A stretch of DNA of 64,000 nt from a virus (IMGVR_UViG_3300044678_002668:15503-79502), one strand, 5' to 3'; positions 44 through 14,841 are shown, counted from the first letter of the stretch. Numbers and translations are program-made. Notes: a model not told the origin generated them from the letters alone.

Positions 44-202
44 ATGGAAAACTTGTTTCACATTTCTACATATAAGTTTGTAGGAAATGTTTTTGATTCG
101 TCAGCTAATTTTATTTCGTTTATAGATACTGTTAATAATAAAGGGTTTTTAAAAACGTCTTTGATTACAGGAAGTATAAGTTTTTTGGATTATTTAATAT
201 GA
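44..202 (+). CDS. microprotein (52 aa), array A
   Basis: Hand-translated ATG..TGA (MENLFHISTYKF...); ATGA overlap with next ORF. Confidence 0.6.
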   Translation: MENLFHISTYKFVGNVFDSSANFISFIDTVNNKGFLKTSLITGSISFLDYLI

Positions 203-357
203 AACGATTAAACACTCTAGAAGCCACTTATTTATTATATAATCCTCAATACAGTCCAGAATACGTTGGATATAGCCTCTATATCTTTAATCCTAAAGAA
301 GATACGGTTAAAGCGGCGGTTAGATTCACCATAAAACATAACGCAGAGTATTTATGA
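199..357 (+). CDS. microprotein (52 aa), array A
   Basis: MKRLNTLEATYLL...; ATGA overlaps at both ends. Confidence 0.65.
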   Translation: MKRLNTLEATYLLYNPQYSPEYVGYSLYIFNPKEDTVKAAVRFTIKHNAEYL

Positions 358-497
358 TTAGTTTAGGTATAGGTAACATGCACATGTATAGGTGGTATTA
401 TTGGGACTCCCAATACATCCTAGAAATCTTTGATGGACTTAGCTTTGATTTCTTTGTTGGGTTTAACGGCTATTCTGAGGTGTATGAATTTATATGA
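354..497 (+). CDS. microprotein (47 aa), array A
   Basis: MISLGIGNMHMYRWYYW...; ATGA overlaps at both ends. Confidence 0.65.
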   Translation: MISLGIGNMHMYRWYYWDSQYILEIFDGLSFDFFVGFNGYSEVYEFI

Positions 498-640
498 GTA
501 GTTTAGAAAGTACTCCCTTTTTTAAATACCGTTTAGAGGTCTATCTAAAAGACCTAACTTATATGCAAATAGACTATGGACCTTGGCTACACTCTATTCA
601 TTTAGGACATTGGCACTACTTTCACCAGGGAAGTATTTAA
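494..640 (+). CDS. microprotein (48 aa), array A
   Basis: MSSLESTPFFKYRLEV...; TAATG junction with next gene. Confidence 0.65.
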   Translation: MSSLESTPFFKYRLEVYLKDLTYMQIDYGPWLHSIHLGHWHYFHQGSI

Positions 641-951
641 TGGAAAAGGTACATAAATACAGTCTTCAAGAGCTGGAAGAAAAGATGGAGACCCTATTTA
701 TCAAGTTAGAATACACTGCCAATTCTCTGGATACTTTAGGAGAAAAAATTAGAGAACTTTATAAGGACCCAATGAAATCCGAAACTCTCCATAAATATTA
801 CATCCGAGAATTTAGCTTGGCCATTGAAAACCACAACTACCAACAAGACCTAGAAATAGTAGTACAATATATCCTAGACGACCATCCAACTCATTTTAAT
901 GCGAACAGAATAAAGCGGTCTATGAAAAGCTTTAATAGGTGCGTTGAATAA
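640..951 (+). CDS. hypothetical protein
   Basis: ORF track 583..951; start moved to ATG 640 (TAATG coupling). Confidence 0.7.
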   Translation: MEKVHKYSLQELEEKMETLFIKLEYTANSLDTLGEKIRELYKDPMKSETLHKYYIREFSLAIENHNYQQDLEIVVQYILDDHPTHFNANRIKRSMKSFNRCVE

Positions 952-1073
952 CCCAGCGATATCAAGCATTTGTAAAACAACGCCCTCATATTGGATATGA
1001 ACCCTAATTATATTGCAGGTGAAGCTTTGCTTCCGCCGCAGCCCCTTAAGGGGCTCTTAGAAAGGACTTCCCC

Positions 1074-1367
1074 ATGTACCTGCCCCTACCCACCTCTCCC
1101 CATAAAGCCTGGCTTGCAGCGGGTTTTGTGAGCTTTACAGCCCTACCAGCCTATAGCCTCACTGAATACTATATGCTCCACTACCCTGTAAAAGACGGGG
1201 GTATTCAGGATCATCCAGCCGCTGACCCTAACGTGGAAAGCCTCGTATCCGACTATGGCCCCTATAGCCCCTTAGAAGGCCATAGGAGCTTTTTAGTTAA
1301 GCTTAAAGACCCATCAGCCTACCTATCCCACCCCAAGGTTCACATCACTTCCATGGAGACCTTATGA
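1074..1367 (+). CDS. hypothetical protein
   Basis: ORF with AAAGGA upstream; ATGA overlap with next. Confidence 0.65.
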   Translation: MYLPLPTSPHKAWLAAGFVSFTALPAYSLTEYYMLHYPVKDGGIQDHPAADPNVESLVSDYGPYSPLEGHRSFLVKLKDPSAYLSHPKVHITSMETL

Positions 1368-1600
1368 AATATCCCTTCCAGCCCATAGCCTCGGCTGTAG
1401 GCCCCTATGGCCAGCAACTCCGCATAGAGGCCTGTATGCCCGCTAAATACAGCTCAGAGAAGACTCCAGGCATGACGGCGGTGTATGGCCCCATTTTTAG
1501 GATTGTGATGGAGGAGATAGATCCTAAAGGTAACGTTAAAGAAATTGCGGAGATGTGGGTGGATGAGAAGGCCTTATTAAGTTTAGGTGTGAAAATTTAG
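1364..1600 (+). CDS. hypothetical protein
   Basis: ORF with GGAG RBS. Confidence 0.65.
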   Translation: MKYPFQPIASAVGPYGQQLRIEACMPAKYSSEKTPGMTAVYGPIFRIVMEEIDPKGNVKEIAEMWVDEKALLSLGVKI

Positions 1601-1718
1601 TGTTTGTGCATAGTAATAGCCCAAGTCACAGTCAAAGTCATCTATACCCCCCCCCAGCAAAACTAAACAAACCTTTAGACAACTCCAAGCGCAAGCGATA
1701 TTACAGTCCGCGCCAAAT

Positions 1719-1750
1719 AAAAAAAAAGGGAGAGGCTTTCGCCCCTCCCC
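1719..1750 (-). terminator. rho-independent terminator of the 1758-2102 gene
   Basis: - strand GGGGAGGGGC-GAAA-GCCTCTCCCC followed by a long T tract. Confidence 0.85.
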
Positions 1751-1757
1751 GTTTCAT

Positions 1758-2102
1758 TTATCCGATCTTCGCTCGTCGCTTTGGCTCAGGACTTGACTCG
1801 CCCTTCGCCTTGGCTTTATAAGCCGCTTTGTTAATCGCTTGGGCCTCAAGGTCTGCTTTTCGTGCCTCATCGTGTGATCCGTCTTCCAGCTCCGTGTCGG
1901 CTTGGACGATCTTCGAGGCGACCTCGAGGAGCTTGATCCACGCCTCACGACCGATCACCGCTTGGCCGCGTGAAAGTTTCACTCGAACCGCTCCGTTGGC
2001 GCAATAGACCGCAACATCCGAATTTATGTCGAGCAACATACGACCGTTGTCTTCTGTTTTTACTTCGAACTGAGAACCTGAAACCTGTTTGAGTTTTGCC
2101 AT
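1758..2102 (-). CDS. hypothetical protein, stand-alone transcription unit
   Basis: 114-aa ORF with TAAGGAG RBS, its own promoter and terminator. Confidence 0.8.
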   Translation of the reverse strand: MAKLKQVSGSQFEVKTEDNGRMLLDINSDVAVYCANGAVRVKLSRGQAVIGREAWIKLLEVASKIVQADTELEDGSHDEARKADLEAQAINKAAYKAKAKGESSPEPKRRAKIG

Positions 2103-2155
2103 CTGGCCTTTATCTCCTTAGTGTCGCGGTCTTAATTGACCGTTTCGACATACCC

Positions 2156-2184
2156 AGAATAGCGCATCTAATTTTGAAAGTCAA
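2156..2184 (-). promoter_or_regulatory. sigma70-type promoter (leftward)
   Basis: - strand TTGACT-17 nt-TATTCT. Confidence 0.75.
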
Positions 2185-2245
2185 GTAATGGATTACGAAT
2201 CTCATTTTGAGACAGAGTGCGTTGTGCGCACCAAGTAAAAAGAAA

Positions 2246-2450
2246 GGGGGCACTGTTAAGGCAGAGTGTTTTAGTAAAGGGGGCACTGTTAAGCTTACAC
2301 ACTCGCGCAAGAAGAAACGCGTTACGCGCATGAAGGGGGCACTGTTAAGAAAATAATTTTGTTTCAATTTGAGATTATTTAATTATATGAGTATGATATT
2401 ATTTTTTATTCCCTTCCCTTGGTTTGATTCAGATTAGGGGCAGTGTTAAG
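2246..2450. repeat. direct repeats GGGGGCACTGTTAAG (iteron/operator-like)
   Basis: Exact copies at 2246-2260, 2279-2293 and 2335-2349; variant GGGGCAGTGTTAAG at 2437-2450. Confidence 0.85.
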
Positions 2451-2661
2451 TATCAGATTGATATTTAGCTAGGGGATTAGTGTTTTCGCATAATCAAATC
2501 ACTATCTTTTCTCTCCTCATTCTCTCTCCTCATTATCCTTCATTTCTCATGTCCCTGACAGTAGGTATAATAACTTATATCCTAAATATAAATAATAATC
2601 ATACTTAATCTTTGCCCGACCCGAGTCGTTCCGCAGGGTTACGCCACACGAAAAAAATCGT

Positions 2662-2691
2662 TTGACACGACCGGCGGCTCGGTGCTATTCT
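2662..2691 (+). promoter_or_regulatory. sigma70-type early promoter (rightward)
   Basis: TTGACA-18 nt-TATTCT with extended -10 TG; A-tract upstream. Confidence 0.75.
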
Positions 2692-2748
2692 GGTTTTGGT
2701 CGGCCGCTCCCTCGCACTAATTAAGCCCGCTCTAATAAGGAGGTTGTT

Positions 2749-3021
2749 ATGTTATACAGAGTTATTCCTTTCTGGTATAAGCATGAGCAGTTCTTTAATG
2801 TATATGACGAGGTGAATAAGCGCACTGTTAAGAGCTTCTTTCTCTCTAAGGTTGAAGCGGATCTCTATATTAGAAAGCTTCTTGGTGAGGACACTATCAT
2901 TCAAGATAAGCCCGCTTCTTTCCATAAGAATCCTTGGAAGTCTTGTAGAGAGAAGCGCCTTCTTAGAGAGAAGGCTTTGAATACTAAATTGGATAATATT
3001 AAGAAGAAGTTTGCCCTTTAA
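2749..3021 (+). CDS. early hypothetical protein
   Basis: AGGAGG RBS; first gene after promoter. Confidence 0.8.
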   Translation: MLYRVIPFWYKHEQFFNVYDEVNKRTVKSFFLSKVEADLYIRKLLGEDTIIQDKPASFHKNPWKSCREKRLLREKALNTKLDNIKKKFAL

Positions 3022-3037
3022 TTTAGGAGGTTCTCTT

Positions 3038-3250
3038 ATGAACGTCAGCAAAAATATCGTTGTGTGGCCATACTATTACAAACCTATTCCAAAACCTTTT
3101 GTAGTTGTTCAATTGGAAGATCATTTTATGGTTTGCAAGGTAGCCGAAGATGGCGAGCTTTTGGAGGAAGTGTCAGTGAAACACTGGAATAAGCTTCGTG
3201 TTCGACGATGGGCCTTTGAATTCGCCAATTTTAATTCCATTAAAAATTAA
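3038..3250 (+). CDS. hypothetical protein
   Basis: AGGAGG RBS before ATG 3038. Confidence 0.75.
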   Translation: MNVSKNIVVWPYYYKPIPKPFVVVQLEDHFMVCKVAEDGELLEEVSVKHWNKLRVRRWAFEFANFNSIKN

Positions 3251-3282
3251 GGTTGATCCCATATCTACAAAGGACAAGTGTT

Positions 3283-3474
3283 ATGAACAAATTTGTTGTT
3301 AAGGCTAAGTTTAGAGGTCCTAAACTTGACATCATGGTGGTTGATAGGTTTGCCACTCGTGAAGAAGCTGAAGAATTCATTGAGTATTGTTTTGATTTAG
3401 GATATGTGAAGAGAGATCATGGCTACTATCACATAGACATGTTTGAGGGACTGTTCATAGAAGACTTTACTTAA
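3283..3474 (+). CDS. hypothetical protein
   Basis: AAGGA RBS before ATG 3283. Confidence 0.7.
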   Translation: MNKFVVKAKFRGPKLDIMVVDRFATREEAEEFIEYCFDLGYVKRDHGYYHIDMFEGLFIEDFT

Positions 3475-3485
3475 GAGGTTCTCAT

Positions 3486-3632
3486 ATGCACCGTCTTGAT
3501 TACATTGGCTCCTATCTTAAATATGAAATCCATCGTATTACCATTAAGGGTGGCGGTACGACATATGATAAGAGTCTTTTATTTGGATGGCATGAAGCTG
3601 CAAAAGAGGGCGTCTATTATGCGCTCTTGTAA
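3486..3632 (+). CDS. small hypothetical protein (48 aa)
   Basis: Hand-translated MHRLDYIGSYLKYEI...; GAGGT RBS. Confidence 0.6.
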   Translation: MHRLDYIGSYLKYEIHRITIKGGGTTYDKSLLFGWHEAAKEGVYYALL

Positions 3633-3939
3633 GAAGTGTGGAGACTCCTATAATCCAGAACTTAGGCGAGGTAAGGGTGGCCTCATTACAGAATGTCAAT
3701 TCTGTGCTGAAGAGAAGGTAGTTAAATATACGGGCAACATGATATATGACCATAAGACTGGATGTTCCATACAAATCAATACAGACCCTAGTCTTACGGC
3801 CTATATTAGAAAGTCCACAGAGCTTAAGAACAAAGGTTCTAACCTCGCTAATAACCTCAAGGTAAGTGGCATAACAAAGGGTATGGGTAGATGTTTGGTT
3901 TCTGTAGCGGCGTCTAATGCTAAAGGAAGGAAGGTATAA
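3619..3939 (+). CDS. hypothetical protein with N-terminal zinc ribbon
   Basis: CKKC...CQFC; start at ATG 3619. Confidence 0.7.
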   Translation: MRSCKKCGDSYNPELRRGKGGLITECQFCAEEKVVKYTGNMIYDHKTGCSIQINTDPSLTAYIRKSTELKNKGSNLANNLKVSGITKGMGRCLVSVAASNAKGRKV

Positions 3940-3940
3940 G

Positions 3941-4324
3941 ATGGACTTAACAGGCTTTTTTATTTTCTCCACTGATAATCCTAAACACACTCCAAAGAAA
4001 GATAAGCATGCCGTATTGGGCTATCTTATGGAGAACTCAGAGGTTATGTATAAAACTTCTGGAGTATTTGGAGGTAAAGAAGAGGTTACATACATGGCTA
4101 AGTTTAAGGGAGAGGCCATGTTTTATAGGATTAAAGATGTCATCTTGGAAGACTTAGGTCAAGAAGCTTTCTTAGAAGTTACACAAACAAAAGTAATATT
4201 CCACACTTTAGGAAACAGTGATTTCTTTTTAAGGAAAGAAGAGATTTCTGTTAGCGATACTAGAGACCATGTTAAGCTGCCTGATGGACGTAGTTTACAT
4301 TTTGTAATGGAGGTATCTTTGTGA
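3941..4324 (+). CDS. hypothetical protein
   Basis: ORF track; ATG 3941 after AGGAAGG. Confidence 0.7.
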   Translation: MDLTGFFIFSTDNPKHTPKKDKHAVLGYLMENSEVMYKTSGVFGGKEEVTYMAKFKGEAMFYRIKDVILEDLGQEAFLEVTQTKVIFHTLGNSDFFLRKEEISVSDTRDHVKLPDGRSLHFVMEVSL

Positions 4325-4497
4325 TACGTATACCAAGATGGAAAAAAGACAATAACAATTATAGATTTGCCATTAGAAAAGATAGAAAAATAGAAGCCTC
4401 CTATAGTGCAAGGTTTACATACTATTGTTTGAATGTTGGTAAAGTTATTGGCGCTTTTGAAGAAGTGTTTAGAAACTCTTGGAGGCTTTCATGTTAA
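4321..4497 (+). CDS. microprotein (58 aa), array B
   Basis: GTGA overlap; GGAGG RBS. Confidence 0.6.
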   Translation: MIRIPRWKKDNNNYRFAIRKDRKIEASYSARFTYYCLNVGKVIGAFEEVFRNSWRLSC

Positions 4498-4649
4498 GTA
4501 CTATGGGTGTACTTATGTCTCTTGCTGGGTTTGTTATGTCTGTTGCCTATCTTCCACTTAATGCACAGACCTCTTATCATTTCTTTTGTGTAGCGGTGGT
4601 GTTTGGATTAGTGGCCGCCATTGGAGCTTATGCAGAGCAGAAAGAGTAG
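4491..4649 (+). CDS. small membrane protein (52 aa, two hydrophobic segments), array B
   Basis: MLSTMGVLMSLAGFVMSVAYL...; GGAGG RBS. Confidence 0.65.
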   Translation: MLSTMGVLMSLAGFVMSVAYLPLNAQTSYHFFCVAVVFGLVAAIGAYAEQKE

Positions 4650-4656
4650 GGTGTAT

Positions 4657-5121: not shown

Positions 5122-5122
5122 C

Positions 5123-5302: not shown

Positions 5303-5304
5303 TA

Positions 5305-5454: not shown

Positions 5455-5465
5455 AAGAGGTGAGC

Positions 5466-5615: not shown

Positions 5616-5617
5616 AA

Positions 5618-5824
5618 ATGCAAACATTATTCCGAACTAGATATGCTAAGTATGCCGCTTTTAACTTTAGAAAAACAAAAGGAGGAGAGCTAGTTGTAGA
5701 CATTATTGTTAGGCCAGAAAGTAGTCAAGAAAAGCTCATTAAGAAGGAGGTGTCTTATACCCGCTTTGTTAAACACATCAAAACAAATGGGTGGTTAAAT
5801 GAAATTCGCAAAGCTTCATCCTAA
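5618..5824 (+). CDS. hypothetical protein
   Basis: GGAG RBS before ATG 5618. Confidence 0.65.
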   Translation: MQTLFRTRYAKYAAFNFRKTKGGELVVDIIVRPESSQEKLIKKEVSYTRFVKHIKTNGWLNEIRKASS

Positions 5825-5999
5825 GTATGGTTTGTTACAGTTTGAATATAACAAAGAGAGGTGTACACTCAAAGTAATTGACGGTATTGGTAATGACCTG
5901 ATGCTAAAGTGGCCTAAGAAAATGTCTCGTTTGTATTTCGATTATGTTATGTTAGATAAAGCAATGGAAGAGGAGATGAAGAAATGTCCAATGAACTGA
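5799..5999 (+). CDS. hypothetical protein
   Basis: ORF track; packed between neighbours. Confidence 0.6.
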   Translation: MKFAKLHPKYGLLQFEYNKERCTLKVIDGIGNDLMLKWPKKMSRLYFDYVMLDKAMEEEMKKCPMN

Positions 6000-6661
6000 A
6001 CCTAACCCCAGCACAACAGCAAATTGTAGAAGATGTCAAGAAAGAGTTTCTTAAATACAACCTTGACACCACACAAGAAAAACATGCAGATGCAGAAGAA
6101 GCCATTAAGCGTTTGTATAAGTATGAGAAACGTAAAGAAGCAGATGACTTGGTATTTATGTGGGTAAAGAATCCCATTCAAGGTGCTAAGCTCGCTGCTT
6201 ATTTCCATCTTGAGAAGAATAAAAACATGAGTAAGGAGGAACTCCAACAAGCCTATCAAGACTACCTTGATGGTAAGCTAAAAGGATTTAAGAACATCAA
6301 TGCTAACCATGCTAAAGAACAGACTAGCTCAGCTTCTTATGGTAGCTTTGAGTCTTATTGGGTGGCTGTCTATCATGCTGTTAAGAACGTAATTCAGGGT
6401 GAGAACAACGAGCTTATTCACATTCTTGTAGACATCGTTAAGAAATGTGGGGTATTCTGGAGGTTTGATAAGGGTGTCATCCTTTGCAACAAACCTTTGG
6501 AAATTCATACGCTTAATAACGAACGTCTCCATAATGATAAGGGACCAGCTCTTGTATATCCTGGACTTAAGATGCACTTCTACAAAGGAGAGTTTAAGAA
6601 CAGTCTTTTGGATTTGATGATGGCTAACAAAATTAATTTGGAAAAGTCTAGTAACGAGTAA
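5984..6661 (+). CDS. DUF6745-like protein
   Basis: C-terminal RLHNDKGPALVYPG motif typical of DUF6745. Confidence 0.6.
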   Translation: MSNELNLTPAQQQIVEDVKKEFLKYNLDTTQEKHADAEEAIKRLYKYEKRKEADDLVFMWVKNPIQGAKLAAYFHLEKNKNMSKEELQQAYQDYLDGKLKGFKNINANHAKEQTSSASYGSFESYWVAVYHAVKNVIQGENNELIHILVDIVKKCGVFWRFDKGVILCNKPLEIHTLNNERLHNDKGPALVYPGLKMHFYKGEFKNSLLDLMMANKINLEKSSNE

Positions 6662-6691: not shown

Positions 6692-7855
6692 ATGAATATT
6701 CGTACACTTAAAAAGGTATTGCCCGTATTGTTTTCACATAACATCGTTCCATTCTTGTGGGGTAATCAAGGTATTGGTAAGACCCAATCAGTAGGACAGC
6801 TAGCTAAAGAGCTGGGCTATGGATTTGTCCATCTCAACTTTGCCACTCAAGAGGTGGGTGATTTGGTAGGTTTGCTTGATAAGCGGCCTGATGGTACAGT
6901 GGCCCACTTGCGTCCTAATTGGATGCCCACTGACGAGGATGGTCCCCACATCATCTTCATGGATGAGCTTAACCGCTCTCATCCTGACGTGATTCAGGCC
7001 CTATTCTCGCTCATTACAGAGCGTCGTATCCATCAACATAAGCTGGGTAAGGAGTGTTATTTAGTGGCTGCTGGCAACTACAATAACGAGAAGTTCACTG
7101 TCACTGACACGTCAGATCAGGCATGGAACTCTCGCTTCTGCCATCTTGATGTGACTCCATCGGTGGAAGAGTGGCTTGATTACATGTCTGATAAGCATGG
7201 AACTAAAGCTTCAGATGTGTTGGATTTTATTAGGGAACTTCCCTCTAATCTAGAGGGCTCTAGTAAATCTTCTTCCACTCTTGACACTAACTTCTTGCGT
7301 CCTGATAGACGTTCATGGGAGTCCATCATCAAGCTTGATTGTGAAGAACGGCTTAGTGAGGGAGTTAAGTTCGAGGTATTTCAAGGTCTTGTAGGTACGG
7401 CATCAGCCGCTAGCTTCCTTTCTCATAAAGAAAACAAGGAGAAAGCTGTAAACCTTGACGACATTCTCCTTCGTTTTGATAAGGGAGTTAAGGAACGCTT
7501 GGATAAGCTTGTTAATAAAGCCGTCTCTACGGAAGTTCGGTTTGACATCTACAGTCAACCTGTTAATGAGCTGCTAGAGAAAGCCACAACGAAGCCTAAG
7601 TACCTGCTTGAGAATGTGCATAACTTGATTAAGTTCCTTGAACATATGCCTTCAGAGATGGCGGTTAATGTTCTCACTAAGCTGGGTTCTCTCAGCCAAG
7701 ATCAAGTTAAGGAAGATGATTTGGATATTGTTAGGGAGCTTAAAGACAACACAGTTAACAATGCAGAACTGTTGTCTAAGGTTCTCTTGAACAAAGAGAA
7801 AGAAGCCGAGCAGGTTCTTCCTAAGAAACGTGGTCGGCCTCGTAAGGTAGTTTAA
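6692..7855 (+). CDS. MoxR-like AAA+ ATPase
   Basis: Walker A GNQGIGKT, Walker B IIFMDE(LNR), AAGN sensor 1, SRF arginine finger. Confidence 0.9.
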   Translation: MNIRTLKKVLPVLFSHNIVPFLWGNQGIGKTQSVGQLAKELGYGFVHLNFATQEVGDLVGLLDKRPDGTVAHLRPNWMPTDEDGPHIIFMDELNRSHPDVIQALFSLITERRIHQHKLGKECYLVAAGNYNNEKFTVTDTSDQAWNSRFCHLDVTPSVEEWLDYMSDKHGTKASDVLDFIRELPSNLEGSSKSSSTLDTNFLRPDRRSWESIIKLDCEERLSEGVKFEVFQGLVGTASAASFLSHKENKEKAVNLDDILLRFDKGVKERLDKLVNKAVSTEVRFDIYSQPVNELLEKATTKPKYLLENVHNLIKFLEHMPSEMAVNVLTKLGSLSQDQVKEDDLDIVRELKDNTVNNAELLSKVLLNKEKEAEQVLPKKRGRPRKVV

Positions 7856-7898
7856 TAATTAAGTATTGTTTAAGGCTCTTTATTTAGGAGATAATTAT

Positions 7899-9167
7899 AT
7901 GAGTATTGTTCCAATGAATACTAAAGCTAACGGAGTTCCCTTCAAACTCGATGAGCTTATGATTAAGCTCCTGACTAAAGAGCCTTTCTTTGCTAACCTA
8001 ATCTATCAATGTAAGATTAAGTACGACCACCCTAAGATTCCCACAGCGGCAGCCACATTTGAAAAGTATACTCCTGTCATCTTCATCAACAGAGACTTCA
8101 TGAGCATGTATACTCAAGATCAACAGGTAGCCGTACTTAAACATGAAGTGTTGCACCTATTACTTGGCCATGTGCAAGATGCCCGAGCTAAGGGTAAACA
8201 TATGCAGGTATGGAACTATGCTGTTGATTGTGCCATCAATCAATACATTGAAAATATTCCTGAGAAGATGTGGGTATTTAATCCCGAATCTAAAGAGTGG
8301 GAATTAGGAGGTTCTGCCATCACCCTTTCCACCCTTAGAAAAATGCTTAACCAACCTAATCTAGAAGCTCTACAAGCCGCTGAATACTATTATGAAAAGC
8401 TTATGGAGAAAGGTAAAGAGAACTTTGAGAAGAACAAAAGCATGGGCTCCGTTATGGATGTTCATGAAGATATTCCTGACAGTGGAGAGGGTACAGAAGA
8501 AGGTCAAGAGGAAGGTAATACTCCAGGACAAGGAAGCCTACAACAAGAACAGATGAAAGCCGCCGCTAAGGATATGTTAAGTAAAGCCCTTAAGCAAACT
8601 AGTCCAGGTTCTGTTCCTGGAGATTTGGTTAAAGCTTTTGATTTCTTGTTCCAAGAATCTTCGCTTAGCTGGAAGTCTATGCTTCGTAACTTTGTGGCTA
8701 GTGCCACGTCAAGCAAACGTAAGGCCACACGTAAGAAGCCCCATCGTAGGTTTGGATTGGAAGTTCCTGGATATAAGAAACATCGGGAGCTTAAGGTGGC
8801 CTATTGCATGGATACTTCTGGTAGTGTTAGTGAAGAGCAGTTTAATTCCGGTGTATCGGAAATGATTAACATGCTTAAGAGCGGGATGATTAGTGAGCTG
8901 CATGTGATTTATGCAGACTGTAAGGTTAACAAGGTAATCAAGGTGGATAAGGTAAGCAAGGTGCCATATGAGCGACATGGCTATGGTGGTACTGCCTATC
9001 AACCAGCCATTGACAAAGCTAAAGAGATTGGATGTGATGCCATTATTTATTTCGGTGATATGGATACCGCTGATACTCCTGAGAATCCTCATATCCCTTT
9101 TATGTGGCTAACTGTTGGGTCCACTGAAAAGCCTGGAAATTTTGGACTTATGGTGGAGCTTAAGTAA
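7899..9167 (+). CDS. DUF2201-type metallopeptidase + VWA domain protein
   Basis: HEVLH (HExxH), WNYAVDCAIN, MIDAS DTSGS, GGT, YFGD. Confidence 0.88.
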   Translation: MSIVPMNTKANGVPFKLDELMIKLLTKEPFFANLIYQCKIKYDHPKIPTAAATFEKYTPVIFINRDFMSMYTQDQQVAVLKHEVLHLLLGHVQDARAKGKHMQVWNYAVDCAINQYIENIPEKMWVFNPESKEWELGGSAITLSTLRKMLNQPNLEALQAAEYYYEKLMEKGKENFEKNKSMGSVMDVHEDIPDSGEGTEEGQEEGNTPGQGSLQQEQMKAAAKDMLSKALKQTSPGSVPGDLVKAFDFLFQESSLSWKSMLRNFVASATSSKRKATRKKPHRRFGLEVPGYKKHRELKVAYCMDTSGSVSEEQFNSGVSEMINMLKSGMISELHVIYADCKVNKVIKVDKVSKVPYERHGYGGTAYQPAIDKAKEIGCDAIIYFGDMDTADTPENPHIPFMWLTVGSTEKPGNFGLMVELK

Positions 9168-10054: not shown

Positions 10055-10061
10055 GGAGTAT

Positions 10062-10781
10062 GTGCCAATGTCTAAGTTCCAATATAAGTTCCTCATGTTA
10101 ACCTTTGTAATATTGTTCTTTCTATTAGGCCTTAAGGCAGGAGCTACTGGCGACCAAGTAAAGGTATTGGTGGTGGATGGAGAGCTTCCCTATGGGGCGT
10201 ATAAGAAGAATGGAGGGGTGTCTTGTGGTATGGCTCCCATTACAGAACCCTTTTATCCTAATAACGAAACTGTTAGACATGCCCTTAACATTGCCTTAAC
10301 CATTAGTCAGGATAATGATGGGGTATGTGTGGATGTTATGCCTCTCTACACCACGTCCAGTAATGCCGATAAGGGGGGATGGGAATATGATGGGGACCTC
10401 TATCATGCCGCCCTTAAGGCTGGTCTTAAGTACGACATTGTACACCTGTCCTTGGCTGGAGATAGGGAAGCTTCCATTGAGAAGCGTCTCATTAAGGATT
10501 TAATTAAGTCTGGAGTCATTGTGGTGGTTAGCTCAGGTAATTGTGAGGAGAATGTTGAGACATGTAAGAAGGTACAATGGCCAGCTAACTACATTCGAGA
10601 AGAGGTCTTTAAGAACTCTAATAGGTTCGTAGTGGTGAGAGCTAAGAGCGTATCTAATAATCTGGAATATGAGGATGTGGCCTTCACTGAGAAAGCTTGT
10701 AGCCATCCTAGAGGCATGACTAAAGGAATGTGTGGGAGTAGTCAAGCCGCTGCTTGGTATACAAGGAAGCTCATTCCATGA
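10062..10781 (+). CDS. secreted subtilisin-like (S8) serine protease, minimal
   Basis: N-terminal signal/TM; VKVLVVDG (Asp), HALNIA (His), VVVSSGN (oxyanion Asn), GSSQAAA (Ser). Confidence 0.75.
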   Translation: MPMSKFQYKFLMLTFVILFFLLGLKAGATGDQVKVLVVDGELPYGAYKKNGGVSCGMAPITEPFYPNNETVRHALNIALTISQDNDGVCVDVMPLYTTSSNADKGGWEYDGDLYHAALKAGLKYDIVHLSLAGDREASIEKRLIKDLIKSGVIVVVSSGNCEENVETCKKVQWPANYIREEVFKNSNRFVVVRAKSVSNNLEYEDVAFTEKACSHPRGMTKGMCGSSQAAAWYTRKLIP

Positions 10782-10903
10782 AAATGCTAAGCAGCCTCAC
10801 ACTCGTAGTTCCCATATCAAACATAGATGATTTAATTAGTAAACAAACTCCGTATTTAGATTCACAATATCAAATATGGAATGAAGGAATATTAATCCTA
10901 TGA
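10778..10903 (+). CDS. microprotein (41 aa), array D
   Basis: MKMLSSLTLVVPISNIDDLISKQTPYLDSQYQIWNEGILIL. Confidence 0.7.
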   Translation: MKMLSSLTLVVPISNIDDLISKQTPYLDSQYQIWNEGILIL

Positions 10904-11046
10904 TAAAATTAAACAGTTTCCTCAACTTAACCTACGACTTACGCATCTTAGCTCCCATCTCAATTGTACATGATTTAATTCATAAACCGACTTTGTATTT
11001 AACTTATCGTGAAGATATGTGGAATAAAGGATGTGTTTATGCGTAG
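10900..11046 (+). CDS. microprotein (48 aa), array D; paralog of 10778-10903
   Basis: ...APISIVHDLIHKPTLYLTYREDMWNKGCVYA. Confidence 0.7.
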   Translation: MIKLNSFLNLTYDLRILAPISIVHDLIHKPTLYLTYREDMWNKGCVYA

Positions 11047-11161
11047 CTTAAAACCTATTTATAACTTGTTTGGATGGGATGATTTGTTGGATAGGATGTA
11101 TTCTCATATACCTTATGCCACCTATGAATTCTGGAAAGAGGCTTCTGAATGGAATACTTAA
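11039..11161 (+). CDS. microprotein (40 aa), array D
   Basis: MRSLKPIYNLFGWDDLL...EFWKEASEWNT. Confidence 0.65.
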   Translation: MRSLKPIYNLFGWDDLLDRMYSHIPYATYEFWKEASEWNT

Positions 11162-11310
11162 TTGTTTTCCGTGAAAAATATAGTTATAAACTACATATGA
11201 TAAACACCATAGAACCTTCAATGGAAATTGATTATAAAATGTTAGAACATGAAAGCTATAGACCAGCCCATTTTACCTTTTGGTCGAATGTAAATTGGAA
11301 TGTGGTATGA
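11149..11310 (+). CDS. microprotein (53 aa), array D
   Basis: MEYLIVFREK...TFWSNVNWNVV. Confidence 0.6.
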   Translation: MEYLIVFREKYSYKLHMINTIEPSMEIDYKMLEHESYRPAHFTFWSNVNWNVV

Positions 11311-11453
11311 ACAATATTTCTAATCTTTATCTAGCATTGTATACTAGTACGTATTTTATTATTAAAGCAAGAGAGAATAATCCTATAGCTATAGATGCTC
11401 CTGCTTATTGGAGCGACATCATTAAGAAAGTTGAAAGGTATGAGTATGTCTAA
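11307..11453 (+). CDS. microprotein (48 aa), array D
   Basis: MNNISNLYL...AYWSDIIKKVERYEYV. Confidence 0.6.
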   Translation: MNNISNLYLALYTSTYFIIKARENNPIAIDAPAYWSDIIKKVERYEYV

Positions 11454-11592
11454 ATTAAAAGAGCTTTATAGGATTGTGTTTGAACGCAGAGATCTTCATG
11501 TTAAGATTAACCCTCTTTATTTTCATGAAGAGTTTTATCCTGGGCATAACTTCTTTTGGGATACCGCTATAAGGAAAGGGAATTTTCTGTGA
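11446..11592 (+). CDS. microprotein (48 aa), array D
   Basis: MSKLKELYRIVF...FFWDTAIRKGNFL. Confidence 0.65.
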   Translation: MSKLKELYRIVFERRDLHVKINPLYFHEEFYPGHNFFWDTAIRKGNFL

Positions 11593-11750
11593 CTAATTTA
11601 GAATACAATATGTGGGATGAATGTAATGTTATATCTGAACATAATGTTTGGGTAGAACACACTACTCCTGAAAATAGAAATCATTTTCAAGCTTCTTTTA
11701 CAAGTAACTGGTCTTGGTGGATTATGAAAACAGGGGAATATATTACATGA
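11589..11750 (+). CDS. microprotein (53 aa), array D
   Basis: GTGA overlap; ...WSWWIMKTGEYIT. Confidence 0.6.
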   Translation: MTNLEYNMWDECNVISEHNVWVEHTTPENRNHFQASFTSNWSWWIMKTGEYIT

Positions 11751-12082
11751 AATACGAAAAGTATAAAGATTTCACACAGTTAACAGGATCGTTAGAGGAC
11801 ATTGCTCTTGGTCTTGAGGATGAGCTAGTTAATGTGGACATTAAAGTCAAGCGTAAGAACTTCTTGGAGTGGTTGGGAGGAGATGAAGTTATCCTAGAAT
11901 CTGAATGGCCTCTTTATTGGGGCTCATCCTTTACTCTTAAAGGAGTATTGGAACCTCAAGAAGGAACCTGGGAAGTGGAGTTAGCGGTTACTGAGGGGGG
12001 AGATGAGGTGAGTGTATACGATATGGGGAACACTCTCTATTCCTACTTAGACGAACTCTTATCAGATTACACTAATACGTGA
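11747..12082 (+). CDS. acidic hypothetical protein
   Basis: ATGA overlap; GGGGA RBS. Confidence 0.75.
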   Translation: MKYEKYKDFTQLTGSLEDIALGLEDELVNVDIKVKRKNFLEWLGGDEVILESEWPLYWGSSFTLKGVLEPQEGTWEVELAVTEGGDEVSVYDMGNTLYSYLDELLSDYTNT

Positions 12083-12084
12083 CA

Positions 12085-12500
12085 TCCTGTTTATAGCTAC
12101 CCTTGCGCTTCGTGCTTTTAGGCACTACGCTTTTGGCGTTTGCTTAGATACACTAACCCTATTACGGGACTTTAAGTTACGCCGTTCCTTTTGGGAACAT
12201 TGGCGGGACATATAGCTTAGAACCCTTATGGGTTCAGTCTAGGGTGGCTTATGCCACCGAGCTGTTCAAGAGGGTAGAGCCTCTCTAGGGTAGTATGCCC
12301 AGCTCTTGACCACCTGTGGTTAGGCTAGTAGAATATATATCTACAGTCGGTTAACCTAACTCTTTGGGCGGGCCTTGCGCCTTCACTATATGTCCAGGTT
12401 CAGACCCTTGATTGTCCTTTAAGAAGGGGCACTAGTAGTCTAACCTGTTTGGCCTGGCCTCATTAGCTTCGGCGTCTAATGGGTAGGTCTTACTATTATT
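12085..12500. ncRNA. putative large structured noncoding element (strand unresolved)
   Basis: No ORF in the supplied track; GC-richer than flanks; >10 hairpins plus long-range helices (12206-15/12386-95; 12395-400/12442-47). Confidence 0.65.
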
Positions 12501-12503
12501 GTA

Positions 12504-12516
12504 ATATTATTTGTTA
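12504..12516 (-). promoter_or_regulatory. putative late promoter motif TAACAAATAATAT
   Basis: Exact copy of motif found upstream of late genes. Confidence 0.55.
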
Positions 12517-12551
12517 CTTAAGTAAAGAATAAAAAGAGTAAAAGGAGTGAC

Positions 12552-12743
12552 ATGATTATCTTAGATTACTTTGATGGGTCTCTTATTAAAGAGTTAAGAC
12601 GAGAGATTAAGAACTTACAATTTCAACAAGAATATATGAAACAGTTTGAAGATATTTATGTAGGTACTCGAGACAGTTTTTTAAGTATTGGAATAAATTA
12701 TATTTCTGACCATTATAAGAGGTATATGGATACATGGTTTTAA
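12552..12743 (+). CDS. microprotein (63 aa), array E
   Basis: AAGGAG RBS; RDSFLS motif. Confidence 0.75.
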   Translation: MIILDYFDGSLIKELRREIKNLQFQQEYMKQFEDIYVGTRDSFLSIGINYISDHYKRYMDTWF

Positions 12744-12916
12744 TCACAAATGAACTTGGATTTTATAACCACTATCTAAAACATACAGATGGAGATATTC
12801 CTGCTGAAGAAGATAGTCCAATCTGGTATTATTTTTTTGGTAGTGATAGGGATGGTATGCTAGTATCTCATTCATATTTATGGGAATTTATTAAAGAACA
12901 TATGGAGACTATGTAA
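12734..12916 (+). CDS. microprotein (60 aa), array E
   Basis: RDGMLV motif. Confidence 0.7.
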   Translation: MVLITNELGFYNHYLKHTDGDIPAEEDSPIWYYFFGSDRDGMLVSHSYLWEFIKEHMETM

Positions 12917-12917
12917 G

Positions 12918-13106
12918 ATGACGAGCCTACATGAGTTTGGAATTGTAAGATATTATCTTTTTGATAGCGGCGCCACTTTAGACATCTTAGAGCTTAAAAA
13001 AACTCTCTATTATAGAGAACAGCCTTCCATGAGAGACAGTTTTTTATCTATAAAAACAACTTATTTATTCTCTGATTTGGATACTTATTTAGAAAGAGGT
13101 TTATGA
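12918..13106 (+). CDS. microprotein (62 aa), array E
   Basis: RDSFLS motif. Confidence 0.75.
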   Translation: MTSLHEFGIVRYYLFDSGATLDILELKKTLYYREQPSMRDSFLSIKTTYLFSDLDTYLERGL

Positions 13107-13258
13107 AAATCTTATCTTATGAGAATGCAATACCAGCATACTTTGACTATGATGTTGTTTACTATCTTTTTTTCGCAGCTTCTGGTGATGGTTTTTTAAC
13201 ATTAGGAGATTGCGATACGATGCTACGTATTATGGAAAAGGTTTTGGAAAATTTATGA
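13103..13258 (+). CDS. microprotein (51 aa), array E
   Basis: Hand-translated; GDGFLT motif; ATGA overlaps. Confidence 0.65.
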   Translation: MKILSYENAIPAYFDYDVVYYLFFAASGDGFLTLGDCDTMLRIMEKVLENL

Positions 13259-13437
13259 ATCCTATATATAAGCCTATTAGCCTGATATTAAACATGTACT
13301 ATAGTGTTAAACAAAACCTGTTAGTAAATAATGTAGCTCATAATGGTGGATTTACTTATCTAAGAGATGGATGGTTTACTAGAAATACTTCTAAACTTTT
13401 ATTTGAAATTTTTGAAGAGGCTTTTAATGTACTCTAA
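13255..13437 (+). CDS. microprotein (60 aa), array E
   Basis: RDGWFT motif; ATGA overlap. Confidence 0.65.
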   Translation: MNPIYKPISLILNMYYSVKQNLLVNNVAHNGGFTYLRDGWFTRNTSKLLFEIFEEAFNVL

Positions 13438-14212
13438 ATATGATGACCATACCTTTCTTCCCCTAACAATTAACGAACATGGCCGTCCCGATGGAGGAGA
13501 TAGTTTAGCTAACTTTGCAAGATATTACCTAGCATGTTTAGCCACTGGCAAACCCTTTACATTAGAACCTCTAACACATGTCCTCTCCCCAGAAGGAGTT
13601 TGTATTAGACATCCAGGAGAAGGCTTTTATTGCAGCTTCTATTATCAAGGTCCGCTTTTTTGGAACAACCCTAAAGAAGTTAGTAGGGACCAAATGAAAG
13701 CTTTAATGTGGGTTATGGCCTATTATAAGAAACATCCCGAATTGTTAAAGGACAAGCCCAAATTCGCAACACTCTTCACACAGCTCGAATACCTTTATTC
13801 TAAAAGGCTATATATGTTTGCCCAGAATGGTGACGTTATGTTGCCTTTCTTTATGGCTAAATCTTATCCTTGGCTCCTGTTTAGAGATTTAGAAATGTTA
13901 ATTAACCTTGCCATTGTTTGTGGGGTATTACCAATTGTAAGGCATGATAAGCCTTGGGGATTTGGTAAAGGATACAAGGTCATGTTTAGTTGGCAAGATA
14001 AGGAAGACTGGTGTGATGGAGATTGCAACATGCTTGTTGACTTGATTGGTTCTTTTCTGATAAAAGATACCTGGATGTCAAAGTGGATGCGACGTATCTA
14101 TAATAAAATTAGAGGAGATAAATATATCCAACACTATTATAGAAATGAATCTGGCAATAATGAAGAGATTGGTAGGGAGCTAGCTTTAGCTGGAAAGAGC
14201 AGTACTTTATGA
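13427..14212 (+). CDS. hypothetical protein (possible enzyme)
   Basis: GAGG RBS before ATG 13427; DGGDS, RHP and SRDQ motifs. Confidence 0.75.
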   Translation: MYSKYDDHTFLPLTINEHGRPDGGDSLANFARYYLACLATGKPFTLEPLTHVLSPEGVCIRHPGEGFYCSFYYQGPLFWNNPKEVSRDQMKALMWVMAYYKKHPELLKDKPKFATLFTQLEYLYSKRLYMFAQNGDVMLPFFMAKSYPWLLFRDLEMLINLAIVCGVLPIVRHDKPWGFGKGYKVMFSWQDKEDWCDGDCNMLVDLIGSFLIKDTWMSKWMRRIYNKIRGDKYIQHYYRNESGNNEEIGRELALAGKSSTL

Positions 14213-14352
14213 AATCCATTAAAGATCGAGATGAATTTAATTCTCATGTATATGATTCTTCAATAGCGTATTGTTTTTTTGAACATCGTAGCTCTGCCAT
14301 AAGTTCAGATTTTTCTAACACTCTTTTAGAGGAATATATATGGAACTTATAA
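14209..14352 (+). CDS. microprotein (47 aa), array F
   Basis: ATGA overlap. Confidence 0.6.
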   Translation: MKSIKDRDEFNSHVYDSSIAYCFFEHRSSAISSDFSNTLLEEYIWNL

Positions 14353-14468
14353 GTGTTATGTATCTTATTAAAAATAGGCTGTATAGCTTCTATATAGAAG
14401 TTCTATACAATACAAAATTTTACTTAGTTACTGAGTTTTATTATGGTTTTATACAGGAGTGGTTTTGA
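14340..14468 (+). CDS. microprotein (42 aa), array F
   Basis: GAGGA RBS. Confidence 0.55.
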   Translation: MELISVMYLIKNRLYSFYIEVLYNTKFYLVTEFYYGFIQEWF

Positions 14469-14593
14469 ATCTTTTACAAGATATACATAGCATGCAAAAT
14501 CATTCATTGCAATATATACATATAATTTACTTTTTAGAAGGAACCTCTCTTATTAGTTTTCCAAACTATACACCATACATAGAGTATTTATAA
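14465..14593 (+). CDS. microprotein (42 aa), array F
   Basis: TTGA overlap, AGGAG RBS. Confidence 0.55.
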   Translation: MNLLQDIHSMQNHSLQYIHIIYFLEGTSLISFPNYTPYIEYL

Positions 14594-14715
14594 TGCGTTT
14601 ATTACGAAGCTTATCAGCAGAACATTTTCCTACTTTTATCTTTCTTAAAACTTTTTATACTTTTAAATGGCAACTTTATGAAGGATTAAAAAGAGGTTGC
14701 AAATGTTTTTATTAG
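14593..14715 (+). CDS. microprotein (40 aa), array F
   Basis: TAATG coupling. Confidence 0.55.
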   Translation: MRLLRSLSAEHFPTFIFLKTFYTFKWQLYEGLKRGCKCFY

Positions 14716-14840
14716 ATACAGTTTCAAGAAAACTAAACAATAAAGATCTCACAATGAATCTTTTTTCTTTGCGAGATTATGAAAAGTCTTTTAAATACCG
14801 TTTAGTTGTGGACATAATGAAAAAAGGAGAAAGGCTATAA
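14703..14840 (+). CDS. microprotein (45 aa), array F
   Basis: GAGGT RBS. Confidence 0.55.
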   Translation: MFLLDTVSRKLNNKDLTMNLFSLRDYEKSFKYRLVVDIMKKGERL

Positions 14841-14841
14841 T

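Follow-up and report, generated by a model that had tools for sequence, protein, structure and literature searches.

Six tandem arrays of small adjoining genes in an uncultured phage look like a protein repertoire with a common N-terminal tag and variable bodies

The window, the whole 64,000-nt stretch of DNA that was analysed, belongs to an uncultured phage of ~80 kb carrying 34-40 adjoining genes for proteins of 40-63 residues. An earlier note on this DNA had proposed that six apparent gaps in the ORF track are tiled by ~35 coupled microproteins, and our refined model comes very close to it, with 34 + strand ORFs of 40-63 codons across six AT-rich blocks. As described there, the blocks are AT-richer than the flanking genes (GC 0.28-0.35 vs 0.40-0.49) and the genes are joined by NTGA or TAATG overlaps or by short spacers: 32 of 34 starts lie <=30 nt from the upstream stop, 17 of them with 4- or 1-nt overlaps. 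The junctions comprise 15 four-nt NTGA overlaps, 2 one-nt overlaps, 9 overlaps of 7-29 nt, 6 spacers of 0-12 nt and one 138-nt spacer, and one array-first gene has no gene just upstream. Every junction has its own start codon, and the Shine-Dalgarno (SD) sequences that the note had placed inside previous genes appear as an enrichment of SD-like AGAGG at -12..-8 (G at -11 in 18/34 and at -9 in 19/34). Promoter-like and terminator-like sites were found at chance levels (47 vs 48.4 and 9 vs 10.1, respectively), and no intergenic repeat family was found between microgenes, most junctions being without intergenic DNA. The common strand, the overlaps or short spacers and the putative ribosome-binding sites within upstream genes are those expected of a translationally coupled operon.

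Table 1. Microgene arrays, candidate additional members and conserved neighbours in the window
Feature	Position (nt)	Strand	Remarks
Array A, 4 microgenes	44-202, 199-357, 354-497, 494-640	+	Three ATGA overlaps
Candidate longer member, 88 aa, METLF...	685..951	+	Carries M-x-x-L; 44 nt after array A
Candidate isolated member, 48 aa, MHRLD...	3486..3632	+	Uncertain, because a 147-aa ORF overlaps in another frame
Array B, 8 microgenes	4321-4497, 4491-4649, 4657-4803, 4800-4970, 4942-5121, 5123-5302, 5305-5454, 5466-5615	+	Starts refined
Candidate ninth array B member, 68 aa, MQTLF...	5618..5824	+	3 nt past B8 stop
DUF6745-like gene	5984..6661	+	Pfam PF20530; conserved neighbour
MoxR-type AAA_5 ATPase, conserved anchor gene	6692..7855	+	Pfam PF07728
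DUF2201 HExxH metallopeptidase-like + VWA protein	7866..9167	+	Pfam PF13203, PF09967
Array C, 5 microgenes	9167-9316, 9304-9441, 9580-9738, 9735-9881, 9878-10054	+	Ile at residue 4 in all
Array D, 7 microgenes	10778-10903, 10900-11046, 11039-11161, 11149-11310, 11307-11453, 11446-11592, 11589-11750	+	L/I at residue 4 in all
Array E, 5 paralogues	12552-12743, 12734-12916, 12918-13106, 13103-13258, 13255-13437	+	From alignment
Array F, 5 microgenes	14209-14352, 14340-14468, 14465-14593, 14593-14715, 14703-14840	+	L/I at residue 4 in all
Candidate membrane member, 34 aa, MTNLI...	15062..15166	+
Candidate member, 70 aa, MTYID...	17617..17829	+

The arrays share their strand with thymidylate synthase (TS), RNR, a DnaB-like helicase and PolA, late genes lying on the other strand, and they alternate with TS, AAA, VWA, RNR and other conserved genes. 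The DUF6745-like gene is present in closer relatives with or without arrays, and the MoxR-type ATPase gene in nearly all related loci. The VWA protein has 444 homologues and invariant residues H93, E94 and H97, and the stop of its gene overlaps the C1 start (TAATG). A ClpP-like protease with an N-terminal membrane anchor is encoded at the operon head and is also found in array-less relatives.

Individual arrays differ in character. The array A proteins begin with MENL, MKRL, MISL and MSSL; in array B, 6/8 proteins have L/I at residue 4 and the microgene at 4491-4649 encodes a two-TM membrane protein. C3-C5 have the common motif M-x-[NE]-[MI]-F-x-W, and a weak hairpin lies inside the 138-nt gap 9441-9580. 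Arrays D and E each carry a motif of their own, as the note had seen and as BLASTP, alignment and a direct repeat confirm: all 7 array D proteins have [FYWIM]-W ~8-13 residues ahead of the C-terminus, and array E follows the pattern M-x-x-[LI] ... YY ... [RG]-D-[GS]-[FMW]-[LF] ... C-terminal helix. Array F has the lowest array GC (0.26-0.28). The microgenes are absent from the ORF track, as stated earlier, but this reflects a mere length cut-off: 28/30 exact products occur in public gene calls, each on 1-6 contigs (array A, 4/4, together with same-length variants; array B, those starting at 4321, 4800, 4942, 5123, 5305 and 5466; array C, 4/5; array D, 6/7; array F, 4).

We compared the tiling of each block by ORFs of >=40 codons with 300 dinucleotide shuffles. 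Coverage of the + strand was 0.79-0.97 per block (0.91 in array A vs 0.13 in its shuffles), and none of the 300 shuffles reached the observed value (mean 0.10-0.20, maximum 0.67); the - strand of the same six blocks gave 0-0.33. Exact 4/1-nt coupled pairs, whose comparison with shuffled sequence had been set in advance as a check, numbered 1-3 per block vs a shuffle mean of <=0.02. Recoding TGA, TAG or TAA left the microgene ORFs unfused. Third-position T is 0.43 in microgenes vs 0.425 in long genes, G peaks at codon position 1, and the synonymous-codon score (-0.04, best in arrays B and E) compares with -0.17 +/- 0.12 for chance ORFs and +0.15 for long genes. About 20 close-relative variants hold length and frame (42 substitutions/1078 positions), with alternative start calls and one 3-residue C-terminal extension as exceptions. 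Altogether, because tiling and coupling are far above chance, synonymous codon usage is gene-like, frames and lengths are kept in close relatives and an N-terminal signature exists at the amino-acid level, these data support the view, already expressed in the earlier note, that the microgenes are coding genes maintained by selection rather than junk. The reported aromatic richness holds as a number (18.3% vs 7.7% in long genes), but base composition alone predicts 14.5%, and much of it is therefore compositional.

Besides Leu/Ile at residue 4, the 34 microproteins share little. This residue is Leu/Ile in 31/34 microproteins (P = 3e-21) vs 8/54 long genes of the same phage, and a start-agnostic scan found the signature in 20/28 coupled small ORFs vs 3/20 coupled long ORFs (Fisher P = 1.4e-4). 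In the window, L/I at this position is encoded by seven different codons, with TTA over-used (48% vs 24% of L/I codons elsewhere); Phe occurs once, Val and Met never. The signature is independent of junction type (15/15 and 16/19 across types). The window consensus is M-x-x-[L/I]; K/R/N are preferred at residues 2, 3 and 5, residue 7 tends to be hydrophobic (22/34, P = 0.01), and other positions are weakly biased.

Local duplication is visible for 15/34 ORFs (C3-C5, D1-D7 and E1-E5), and the local amplification that had been proposed thus holds for these, but not for arrays A, B and F, where no paralogy was detected besides the N-terminal signature. D1/D2 are the best pair (BLASTP E = 2e-6; 42% protein identity; an 86-nt direct repeat with 71% DNA identity), E1~E3 and E2~E4 are weak BLAST pairs, and most microprotein pairs are undetectable by BLAST. 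The duplication is old and diverged, and no recent near-identical tandem copies were found within the arrays; the gene accordion of the note, taken in the strict sense, therefore does not fit. In poxvirus gene accordions (e.g. K3L amplification), copies are recent, near-identical and transient. Rapid adaptation draws there on tandem copies of a host-interaction gene, as it may in the arrays; the array copies, however, are old, with hardly any recognisable similarity left, and the arrays themselves are conserved within a clade.

Searches of Pfam, PHROGs, PDB sequences and the ESM Atlas returned no usable homologue, fold or family indicating function. Among the 34 microproteins, PHROGs gave no match, internal proteins included, and Pfam two chance-level matches only; no significant Pfam, PHROG or PDB match linked them to known anti-defence or annotated phage families. 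The array E profile found nothing among PDB sequences, and among 1.84 billion representatives it recovered its own lineage only, with no credible match to any longer protein; E3 has a 62-aa homologue of 89% identity. In the AlphaFold2 model of the L010 family, from a related lineage, a single long helix spans residues 9-64 (pLDDT 87) and excludes the conserved residues 1-8. The model obtained for window protein E2 cannot be relied on (pLDDT 52), and in the window family residue 4 could therefore lie buried in the core instead of being exposed as a tag.

Related phages, fetched through the VWA gene (VWA neighbour 32-41% identical), bear equivalent arrays, some of them at a matching position: in the window phage, in L022/L004 and in L010 alike, the VWA stop is overlapped or abutted by the first microgene. 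Because relatives were fetched in this way, part of the association between the arrays and the AAA/VWA pair is built in, and many phages have this pair without arrays. Each lineage has its own signature: M[KR]KY in L022/L004 (21 matches on the gene strand vs 1 on the other in a 79.8-kb genome, with Y4 and I/V/L7 as the conserved positions), MKPQ in L005, MxKRxQ[IF] in L010/11, MxKHKQI in L006/7 and MIR[KR]P[WF] in L016/17; that of the window, with one strong position, is much weaker. Invariant residues are encoded with free synonymous variation (CGT, CGC, CGA, AGA and AGG for Arg4 of the L010 family; CCT, CCA and CCG for Pro3 of L005), and selection therefore acts on the peptide, not on the DNA. 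Signature similarity is greatest between L006 and L010, the phages whose VWA proteins are also the closest (49%). Bodies are paralogous within each of the L010 and L016 families; homology between lineage families would rest on genome position together with weak K3/K5 and hydrophobic-7 preferences. The microprotein family appears old, because arrays and signatures follow a phage clade in which identity between VWA proteins is no higher than 32-51%. The fast divergence previously suggested is borne out, in the sister lineage only: between L022 and L004, pN/pS is 0.12-0.46 for four microgenes and 1.1 for one, on few substitutions, vs 0.02-0.07 for core genes, and one cassette has been replaced exactly at gene borders.

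Because relatives bear equivalent arrays with their own N-terminal signatures, the arrays look like a so far undescribed repertoire of proteins with a common tag and a variable body. The reading that we favour, with modest confidence, is that of a clade-specific, fast-diverging family of ~34-40 translated genes with a shared N-terminal handle and a variable body. The products would be mostly soluble, aromatic-rich proteins of 40-63 residues, encoded within long + strand early/replication operons and presumably expressed early. Judging from gene arrangement, they would be expressed through translational coupling rather than from promoters of their own, stop/start overlaps and the SD-like AGAGG inside the preceding gene acting as coupling elements. 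Each protein would combine a short N-terminal signature under amino-acid selection with a body that has diverged until paralogy is nearly erased. The signature may be a shared handle for one common partner or process (addressing, processing or turnover), the variable bodies would give each member a different, probably host, target, and the overall role would be that of an early host-manipulation or counter-defence repertoire.

The closest known analogue is found in the internal proteins of T-even phages, a diverse set whose common element is a capsid-targeting sequence (CTS). IPI, IPII, IPIII and their polymorphic replacements are, like the array products, small and highly diverse with only a short N-terminal sequence in common, and an arms race with the defence systems of the host is believed to have shaped the T4 internal proteins. 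Mature T4 IPI* is also similar in size to the microproteins. The T4 CTS comprises the first 10 residues (PMC9026906), with targeting information carried mainly by residues 4 and 7 (PMC9026906, PMC3012670), and these are the conserved positions in the window (residue 4 and, weakly, residue 7) as well as in the sister lineage with Y4 and I/V/L7. The signature could be a capsid- or injection-addressing tag, with microproteins loaded in proheads and delivered with the DNA as a counter-defence arsenal. The likeness is one of pattern, however, not of sequence: there is no sequence homology, PHROGs internal proteins included, the members are ten times more numerous, and the phages belong to a different, non-T4 clade. 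The genes lie in early/replication operons, on the other strand from the virion genes and not beside head genes. No conserved protease site follows the tag: with respect to a prohead-protease site ([L/I]-x-E type), positions 8-10, and indeed 8-12, are unconstrained in the window, and the MKKY family is without a consistent site. Only 11/34 microproteins are basic, and the ClpP-like protease at the operon head is membrane-anchored and not specific to array-bearing phages. Packaging of the microproteins is, on this evidence, unlikely.

Alternatively, the signature might serve translation, with codons 2-5 tuned for early elongation or re-initiation of short coupled ORFs on which unrelated ORFans converged. 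In E. coli, protein yield depends strongly on which residues occupy positions 3-5, the best motifs being K|N-Y and K|N-I at codons 3-4 (AADUAU, AAVAUU; PMC6920384); this K|N-Y|I 'short translational ramp', which acts at the peptide and codon level, consists like our signatures of 2-3 residues right after the start codon (Verma et al., 2019, PMC6920384). The sister M-[KR]-K-Y signature fits it exactly, MKKY being an instance of the motif, and the enrichment of K/N at residues 2, 3 and 5 and the over-use of TTA at codon 4 point the same way. The window and three other lineage signatures do not fit, however: K|N-Y|I occurs at codons 3-4 in 2/34 window ORFs, and the others hold Pro, Trp or CGN-encoded Arg (MKPQ, MIRKPW, MxKRxQI). 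The signature is confined to the microgene family, not to highly expressed genes, and is missing from the long, presumably highly expressed genes of the same phage; it is independent of both junction type and SD presence, and bodies are demonstrably paralogous within arrays C, D and E and the L010 and L016 families. We regard this explanation as improbable. A further possibility is an N-terminal degron or protease-docking motif, conferring a short programmed lifetime or making the microproteins decoys that swamp a host AAA+ protease. AAA+ proteases read short unstructured N-terminal degrons, with three N-motif classes for ClpX (PMC12723719); the sister-family tag is predicted to lie outside the folded helix and the operon encodes a MoxR AAA+ ATPase, an HExxH/VWA protein and a ClpP-like protease, but these genes occur without arrays too, and we consider such a role quite unlikely. 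That the ORFs are nonfunctional (decayed gene fragments, sequencing-error frames, a recoded genome or chance ORFs) is suggested by their very small size, AT-richness, lack of a database family and a codon-usage signal weaker than that of long genes. This explanation is close to refuted: shuffles never reached the observed tiling, each junction has its own start codon (15 with exact NTGA overlaps), recoding merges no ORFs, identical frames and lengths recur on independent contigs, the array E profile has no credible longer match, and a residue-4 signature is impossible from non-coding DNA.

The arrays also resemble the hyperplastic regions of T4-type phages with PeSL cassettes (Arbiol et al., 2010, PMC2839356; PMC4122927), where blocks of small non-conserved ORFans lie among core genes, as the arrays do. 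The repeated sigma-70 promoter and stem-loop cassettes of those regions were not found in the window, nor was repeated DNA between microgenes, and PeSL genes are individually promoted whereas the microgenes are apparently translationally coupled. The arrays share a protein-level signature, and none has been reported for PeSL-bounded ORFans. In both, close relatives differ through the gain, loss and replacement of single genes, as the comparison of L022 with L004 shows for the arrays.

The six AT-rich blocks of the window (arrays A to F) are tiled by small + strand genes, as the earlier note had described. ORFs of at least 40 codons on this strand fill 0.79-0.97 of each block, as compared with a mean coverage of 0.10-0.20 in dinucleotide shuffles (the observed value was reached in 0 of 300) and with 0-0.33 on the - strand. 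Starts were picked according to where they lay with respect to the preceding stop, which gave 34 ORFs, each 40-63 codons long. Of their junctions, 15 are NTGA overlaps, 2 are one-nt overlaps and 9 are longer overlaps; another 6 are spacers not exceeding 12 nt, one is a spacer of 138 nt, and one ORF is an array-first gene. Stop/start overlaps are in excess of those in shuffled sequence, and a purine-rich AGAGG followed by a T-rich spacer is found at -12 to -8 of the microgene starts. The position-specific composition of the microgenes (T3 0.43, G highest at position 1) is closer to that of long genes than the composition of chance ORFs is, and so is their synonymous-codon score, at -0.04 (chance ORFs, -0.17; long genes, +0.15). 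Exact translations of 28 of 30 are present in a public gene-call collection, on 1-6 contigs, including the chosen GTG and internal-ATG starts, and the frames are kept in near relatives, where about 20 variant sequences are unchanged in length and frame; the exceptions are differing start calls and a single C-terminal extension by 3 residues. Contigs with such variants measure 27,069, 21,196, 30,081, 22,154, 12,720 and 5,155 bp. The two sequence-level outcomes that the earlier note had named as refuting (coupling as rare as in shuffles, and frames lost in relatives) were thus not observed. That the microgenes are coding can be regarded as close to settled. Stop-codon recoding was also considered and rejected: reading TGA, TAG or TAA as sense leaves the ORFs unfused and no long genes arise. 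TAG terminates none of the 46 ORFs of at least 150 codons in the genome (40 TAA, 6 TGA) and is the stop of four microgenes (ends at 4649, 9441, 11046 and 14715). Promoter and terminator sites proper to the microgenes occurred only at chance level, and there are no intergenic repeats of the type of the T4 promoter/stem-loop cassette (PeSL) or any other, the sole repeats being paralogue traces (D1/D2, E1/E3 and E1/E4).

The microproteins carry a short N-terminal signature, M-x-x-[L/I]. Of the 34 ORFs, 31 have Leu (19) or Ile (12) at residue 4, for a background of 0.17-0.18 (P = 3e-21), as do only 8 of 54 long genes of the same genome. In a start-agnostic scan, in which each start that lies in a 4- or 1-nt overlap with an upstream stop is counted, L/I was found at this position in 20 of 28 small coupled ORFs vs 3 of 20 long coupled ORFs (Fisher P = 1.4e-4), and the signature is present irrespective of junction type. 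Mild enrichments are also seen for K/R/N at residues 2, 3 and 5 and for hydrophobic residues at position 7. Because the residue-4 L/I is spelled by seven codons, and because Phe occurs there once despite abundant TTT one step away (Val and Met, zero times), the constraint on codon 4 is for a branched aliphatic side chain and not for an RNA 'WTW' pattern. A backup stop for the upstream frame (+11 to +13) does not account for codon 4 either, since just 6 of the 15 junctions with a four-nt overlap have one, as do 9 of the remaining 19. Six + strand ORFs outside the arrays bear the signature, and the family may thus number about 40. A MAFFT alignment of all 34 microproteins had no meaning past Met1. 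Most of the ORFs are likely members of one old, diverged family that the signature defines.

Related phages have signatures of their own. The VWA protein (DUF2201 HExxH/VWA) has hundreds of homologues, the alignment of which led to 44 viral loci, and these loci were tiled greedily for microgenes. In a near relative, P0004 (on a 6,938-bp contig), the VWA is 58% identical to that of the window. Several phages whose VWA is 32-41% identical to that of the window possess both arrays and a distinct signature: M-[KR]-K-Y-[KN]-x-[IVL] in L022/L004, M-K-P-Q in L005 (10 genes), M-x-K-R-x-Q-[IF] in L010/L011 (12 genes), M-x-K-H-K-Q-[IL] in L006/L007 (3 genes) and M-I-R-[KR]-P-[WF] in L016/L017 (8 genes). 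In the complete 79.8-kb genome of L022, ATG-[KR]-K-Y sites number 21 on the gene strand vs 1 on the opposite strand, and 11 form one run. Synonymous codons vary freely inside the signatures (five codons for the invariant Arg of the L010 family, three for the L005 Pro and, in the MKKY family, AAA/AAG for K, AGA/AGG for R and TAT/TAC for Y), showing that selection acts on the peptide. The first microgene begins at the VWA stop codon, either overlapping or abutting it, in the window and also in L022/L004 and L010. Of the signatures, KRxQI and KHKQI are the closest to each other, and they come from the pair of phages whose VWA proteins are most alike (49%). Both observations suggest that arrays and signature were inherited and drift slowly, the bodies having diverged past recognition. 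Other relatives with the AAA/VWA pair are without such arrays. A search for a gene that co-occurs with the arrays yielded only AAA, VWA and DUF6745, which all track phylogeny and not arrays, and the ClpP-like protease is widespread too.

The bodies are diverse. The blocks are indeed AT-richer than their neighbours (GC 0.28-0.35 vs 0.40-0.49 in flanking genes). Aromatic residues reach 18% in the microproteins vs 7.7% in long genes, but base composition alone already predicts 14.5%, so that the clear excess is restricted to Tyr and Trp. All microproteins are predicted to be soluble except B2, a two-helix membrane protein, and acidic and basic members are intermixed. Tandem amplification was only partly borne out: sequence comparison supports local duplication for 15 of 34 genes, the copies being old, and none was detected in arrays A, B and F. 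D1/D2 form one clear BLAST pair (E = 2e-6) that is also an 86-nt DNA repeat with 71% identity, and the sub-threshold list is topped by the weak intra-array pairs E1~E3, E2~E4, D1~D4 and D4~D6. The motifs proper to arrays D and E were recovered, as an aromatic-Trp pair near the C-terminus of all seven D proteins and as a pattern common to E1-E5 (YY...[RG]-D-[GS]-[FMW]-[LF]...helix); C3-C5 share M-x-[NE]-[MI]-F-x-W. Evolutionary rates were measured in a sister lineage, on L022 vs L004, the sole sufficiently close pair with DNA: pN/pS was 0.12-0.46 for four orthologous microgenes and 1.1 for a fifth, vs 0.02-0.07 for five of six adjacent longer genes (0.39 for the sixth). In one array segment, two L022 genes are swapped for one unrelated L004 gene, with breakpoints at gene borders. 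A profile of the E family searched against 1.84 billion representative proteins retrieved its own lineage only (a match to a low-complexity 1027-aa protein was taken as spurious), no family in Pfam, PHROG or PDB sequences matched any microprotein and the ESM Atlas returned nothing usable.

Because the signature is strong within each genome, different between lineages, selected as peptide and missing from other genes, it is most simply explained as a shared handle that a common partner or process would recognise, each variable body supplying the specificity of its member. Several readers are candidates. By analogy with the capsid-targeting sequence (CTS) of T-even internal proteins, the handle could be read by the prohead core; it could also be read by an AAA+ protease, since proteases of this type that recognise N-terminal degrons are known (PMC12723719). 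A third candidate is the ribosome, with an effect on early elongation: the motifs K|N-Y|I, which Verma et al. (PMC6920384) described at early codons, match the MKKY lineage, whereas the window and three other lineages do not fit them. Alternatively, the conserved residues may be a buried structural part of the fold. AlphaFold2 predicted the L010 family as one long helix (residues 9-64, pLDDT 87) with the conserved residues 1-8 outside it, a model that agrees with an exposed tag in that lineage and does not settle the window family, for which the prediction of E2 (8-row family alignment) was unusable (pLDDT 52).

As to what the microproteins do, we infer a role in host takeover or counter-defence from their place in the early region, their shortness, the speed at which they evolve and the turnover of cassettes. 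A bolder proposal, which we hold to be rather improbable, is that this clade of roughly 80-kb phages has a general system in which an address label is joined to a variable payload. The label, 4-7 N-terminal residues specific to the lineage, would be read by one phage or host machine (a module of the AAA+/protease kind, a prohead core or some other partner), and the fast-evolving microproteins, dozens of them, would all be routed to one shared fate. If true, the phage would possess a broad, evolvable set of binders that target the host or counter its defences: a counterpart of the T4 CTS/internal-protein system, expanded many-fold and independent in mechanism. As a rule, blocks of small early ORFans in phages are regarded as unrelated 'dark matter'; here, a short peptide-selected signature unites about 35 of them in one genome, and similar sets exist in five related lineages or more. 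Hypothetical proteins that were simply listed thereby become one family, whose organising principle is testable by tag mutation or transplant. It also provides a cheap sequence rule for locating more members and more phages. Should the tag direct proteins to one shared machine, it would represent a new way for phages to deploy large, fast-evolving repertoires against hosts, and it might be reused in phage engineering to deliver or regulate proteins, for which the T4 CTS is a precedent.

The virus record that contains the window is 79.5 kb long (completeness estimate, 95%). A + strand gene block starts 2.1 kb ahead of the window and ends at about 35.7 kb; its products include a ClpP-like protease, thymidylate synthase, a MoxR-type AAA_5 ATPase, the DUF2201 HExxH/VWA protein, a class II RNR with intein, a DnaB-like helicase and PolA; portal, terminase and major head and tail genes are on the - strand. 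Given this partition of replication and virion genes, the six arrays are, judged by gene position, within the first 17 kb of the early/replication transcription unit. Megablast against phage records found nothing close to the window at the DNA level, and neither peptides of the window nor protein P0002 gave matches in scans of viral and metagenome data. Two distant relatives are binned in Bacteroidia and Flavobacteriaceae MAGs, and the best match of the window PolA is from a Flavobacterium phage (33%); the clear SD-like sites agree poorly with that phylum. An Rfam search of window 1-18000 found nothing, and the window has no tRNAs. The 18-nt repeat, located in a poorly coding stretch, looks like a set of iterons or regulator-binding sites.

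Positions of the arrays and of other features (window numbering unless another is named)
Feature	Position	Strand	Details
Array A	44-640	+	
Array B	4321-5615	+	
Array C	9167-10054	+	
Array D	10778-11750	+	
Array E	12552-13437	+	
Array F	14209-14840	+	
ClpP/head-maturation-protease-like serine protease	L052:13351-14160 (numbering reaching upstream of the window)	+	2.1 kb upstream of window; PHROG 94, E = 2e-30
GC-rich island	1000-2200		GC about 0.50 vs 0.30-0.38 around; ORFs on both strands
Strong terminator-like hairpin	1750-1727	-	10-bp stem, 7 G-C pairs, T run; inside GC-rich island
18-nt repeat AAAGGGGGCACTGTTAAG	2243-2832		5 copies: two exact, one 94%, two 78%; spacing 33-382 nt
GC-richer gap without ORFs	12083-12551		separates arrays D and E; nothing in Rfam reaches threshold
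B12-dependent ribonucleotide reductase	18439-21246		intein with LAGLIDADG endonuclease domain
Late-module island in the L022 genome (G001)	G001:45393-46332	-	between head and tail genes; three MKKY-type microgenes + 66-, 85- and 141-residue genes; orientation opposite

The ClpP-like protease is the first gene of the + strand block, carries an N-terminal membrane anchor and lies on the strand opposite portal and terminase. In L005, L024 and many distant large-phage loci, its homologues follow the VWA gene at 1-5 kb downstream; those of L009/L012 lie upstream of that gene, and the L022 genome has the protease elsewhere. The same phage group has a second multi-copy family of small proteins, in which the fixed end is the C-terminus: in L018, L021, L023, L025, L031 and L032 (VWA about 32-34% identical), dispersed proteins of 57-85 residues with variable beta-rich bodies share the C-terminal motif S-L-E-x-E-L-L (HP[IT]LVKLW in L023). 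The nearest cultured carriers of the MoxR/VWA-metallopeptidase gene (H16-H35, 23-30% identity) have mostly 68-80-kb podovirus-type genomes and include Escherichia Pollock, Erwinia S6, Salmonella FSL SP-058, Vibrio SBP1 and Acinetobacter nACB1, which we take to be N4-like phages; the VWA gene of cultured N4-like phages is 23-27% identical. In cultured phages this gene is frequently labelled 'HNH endonuclease', which looks like an annotation error.
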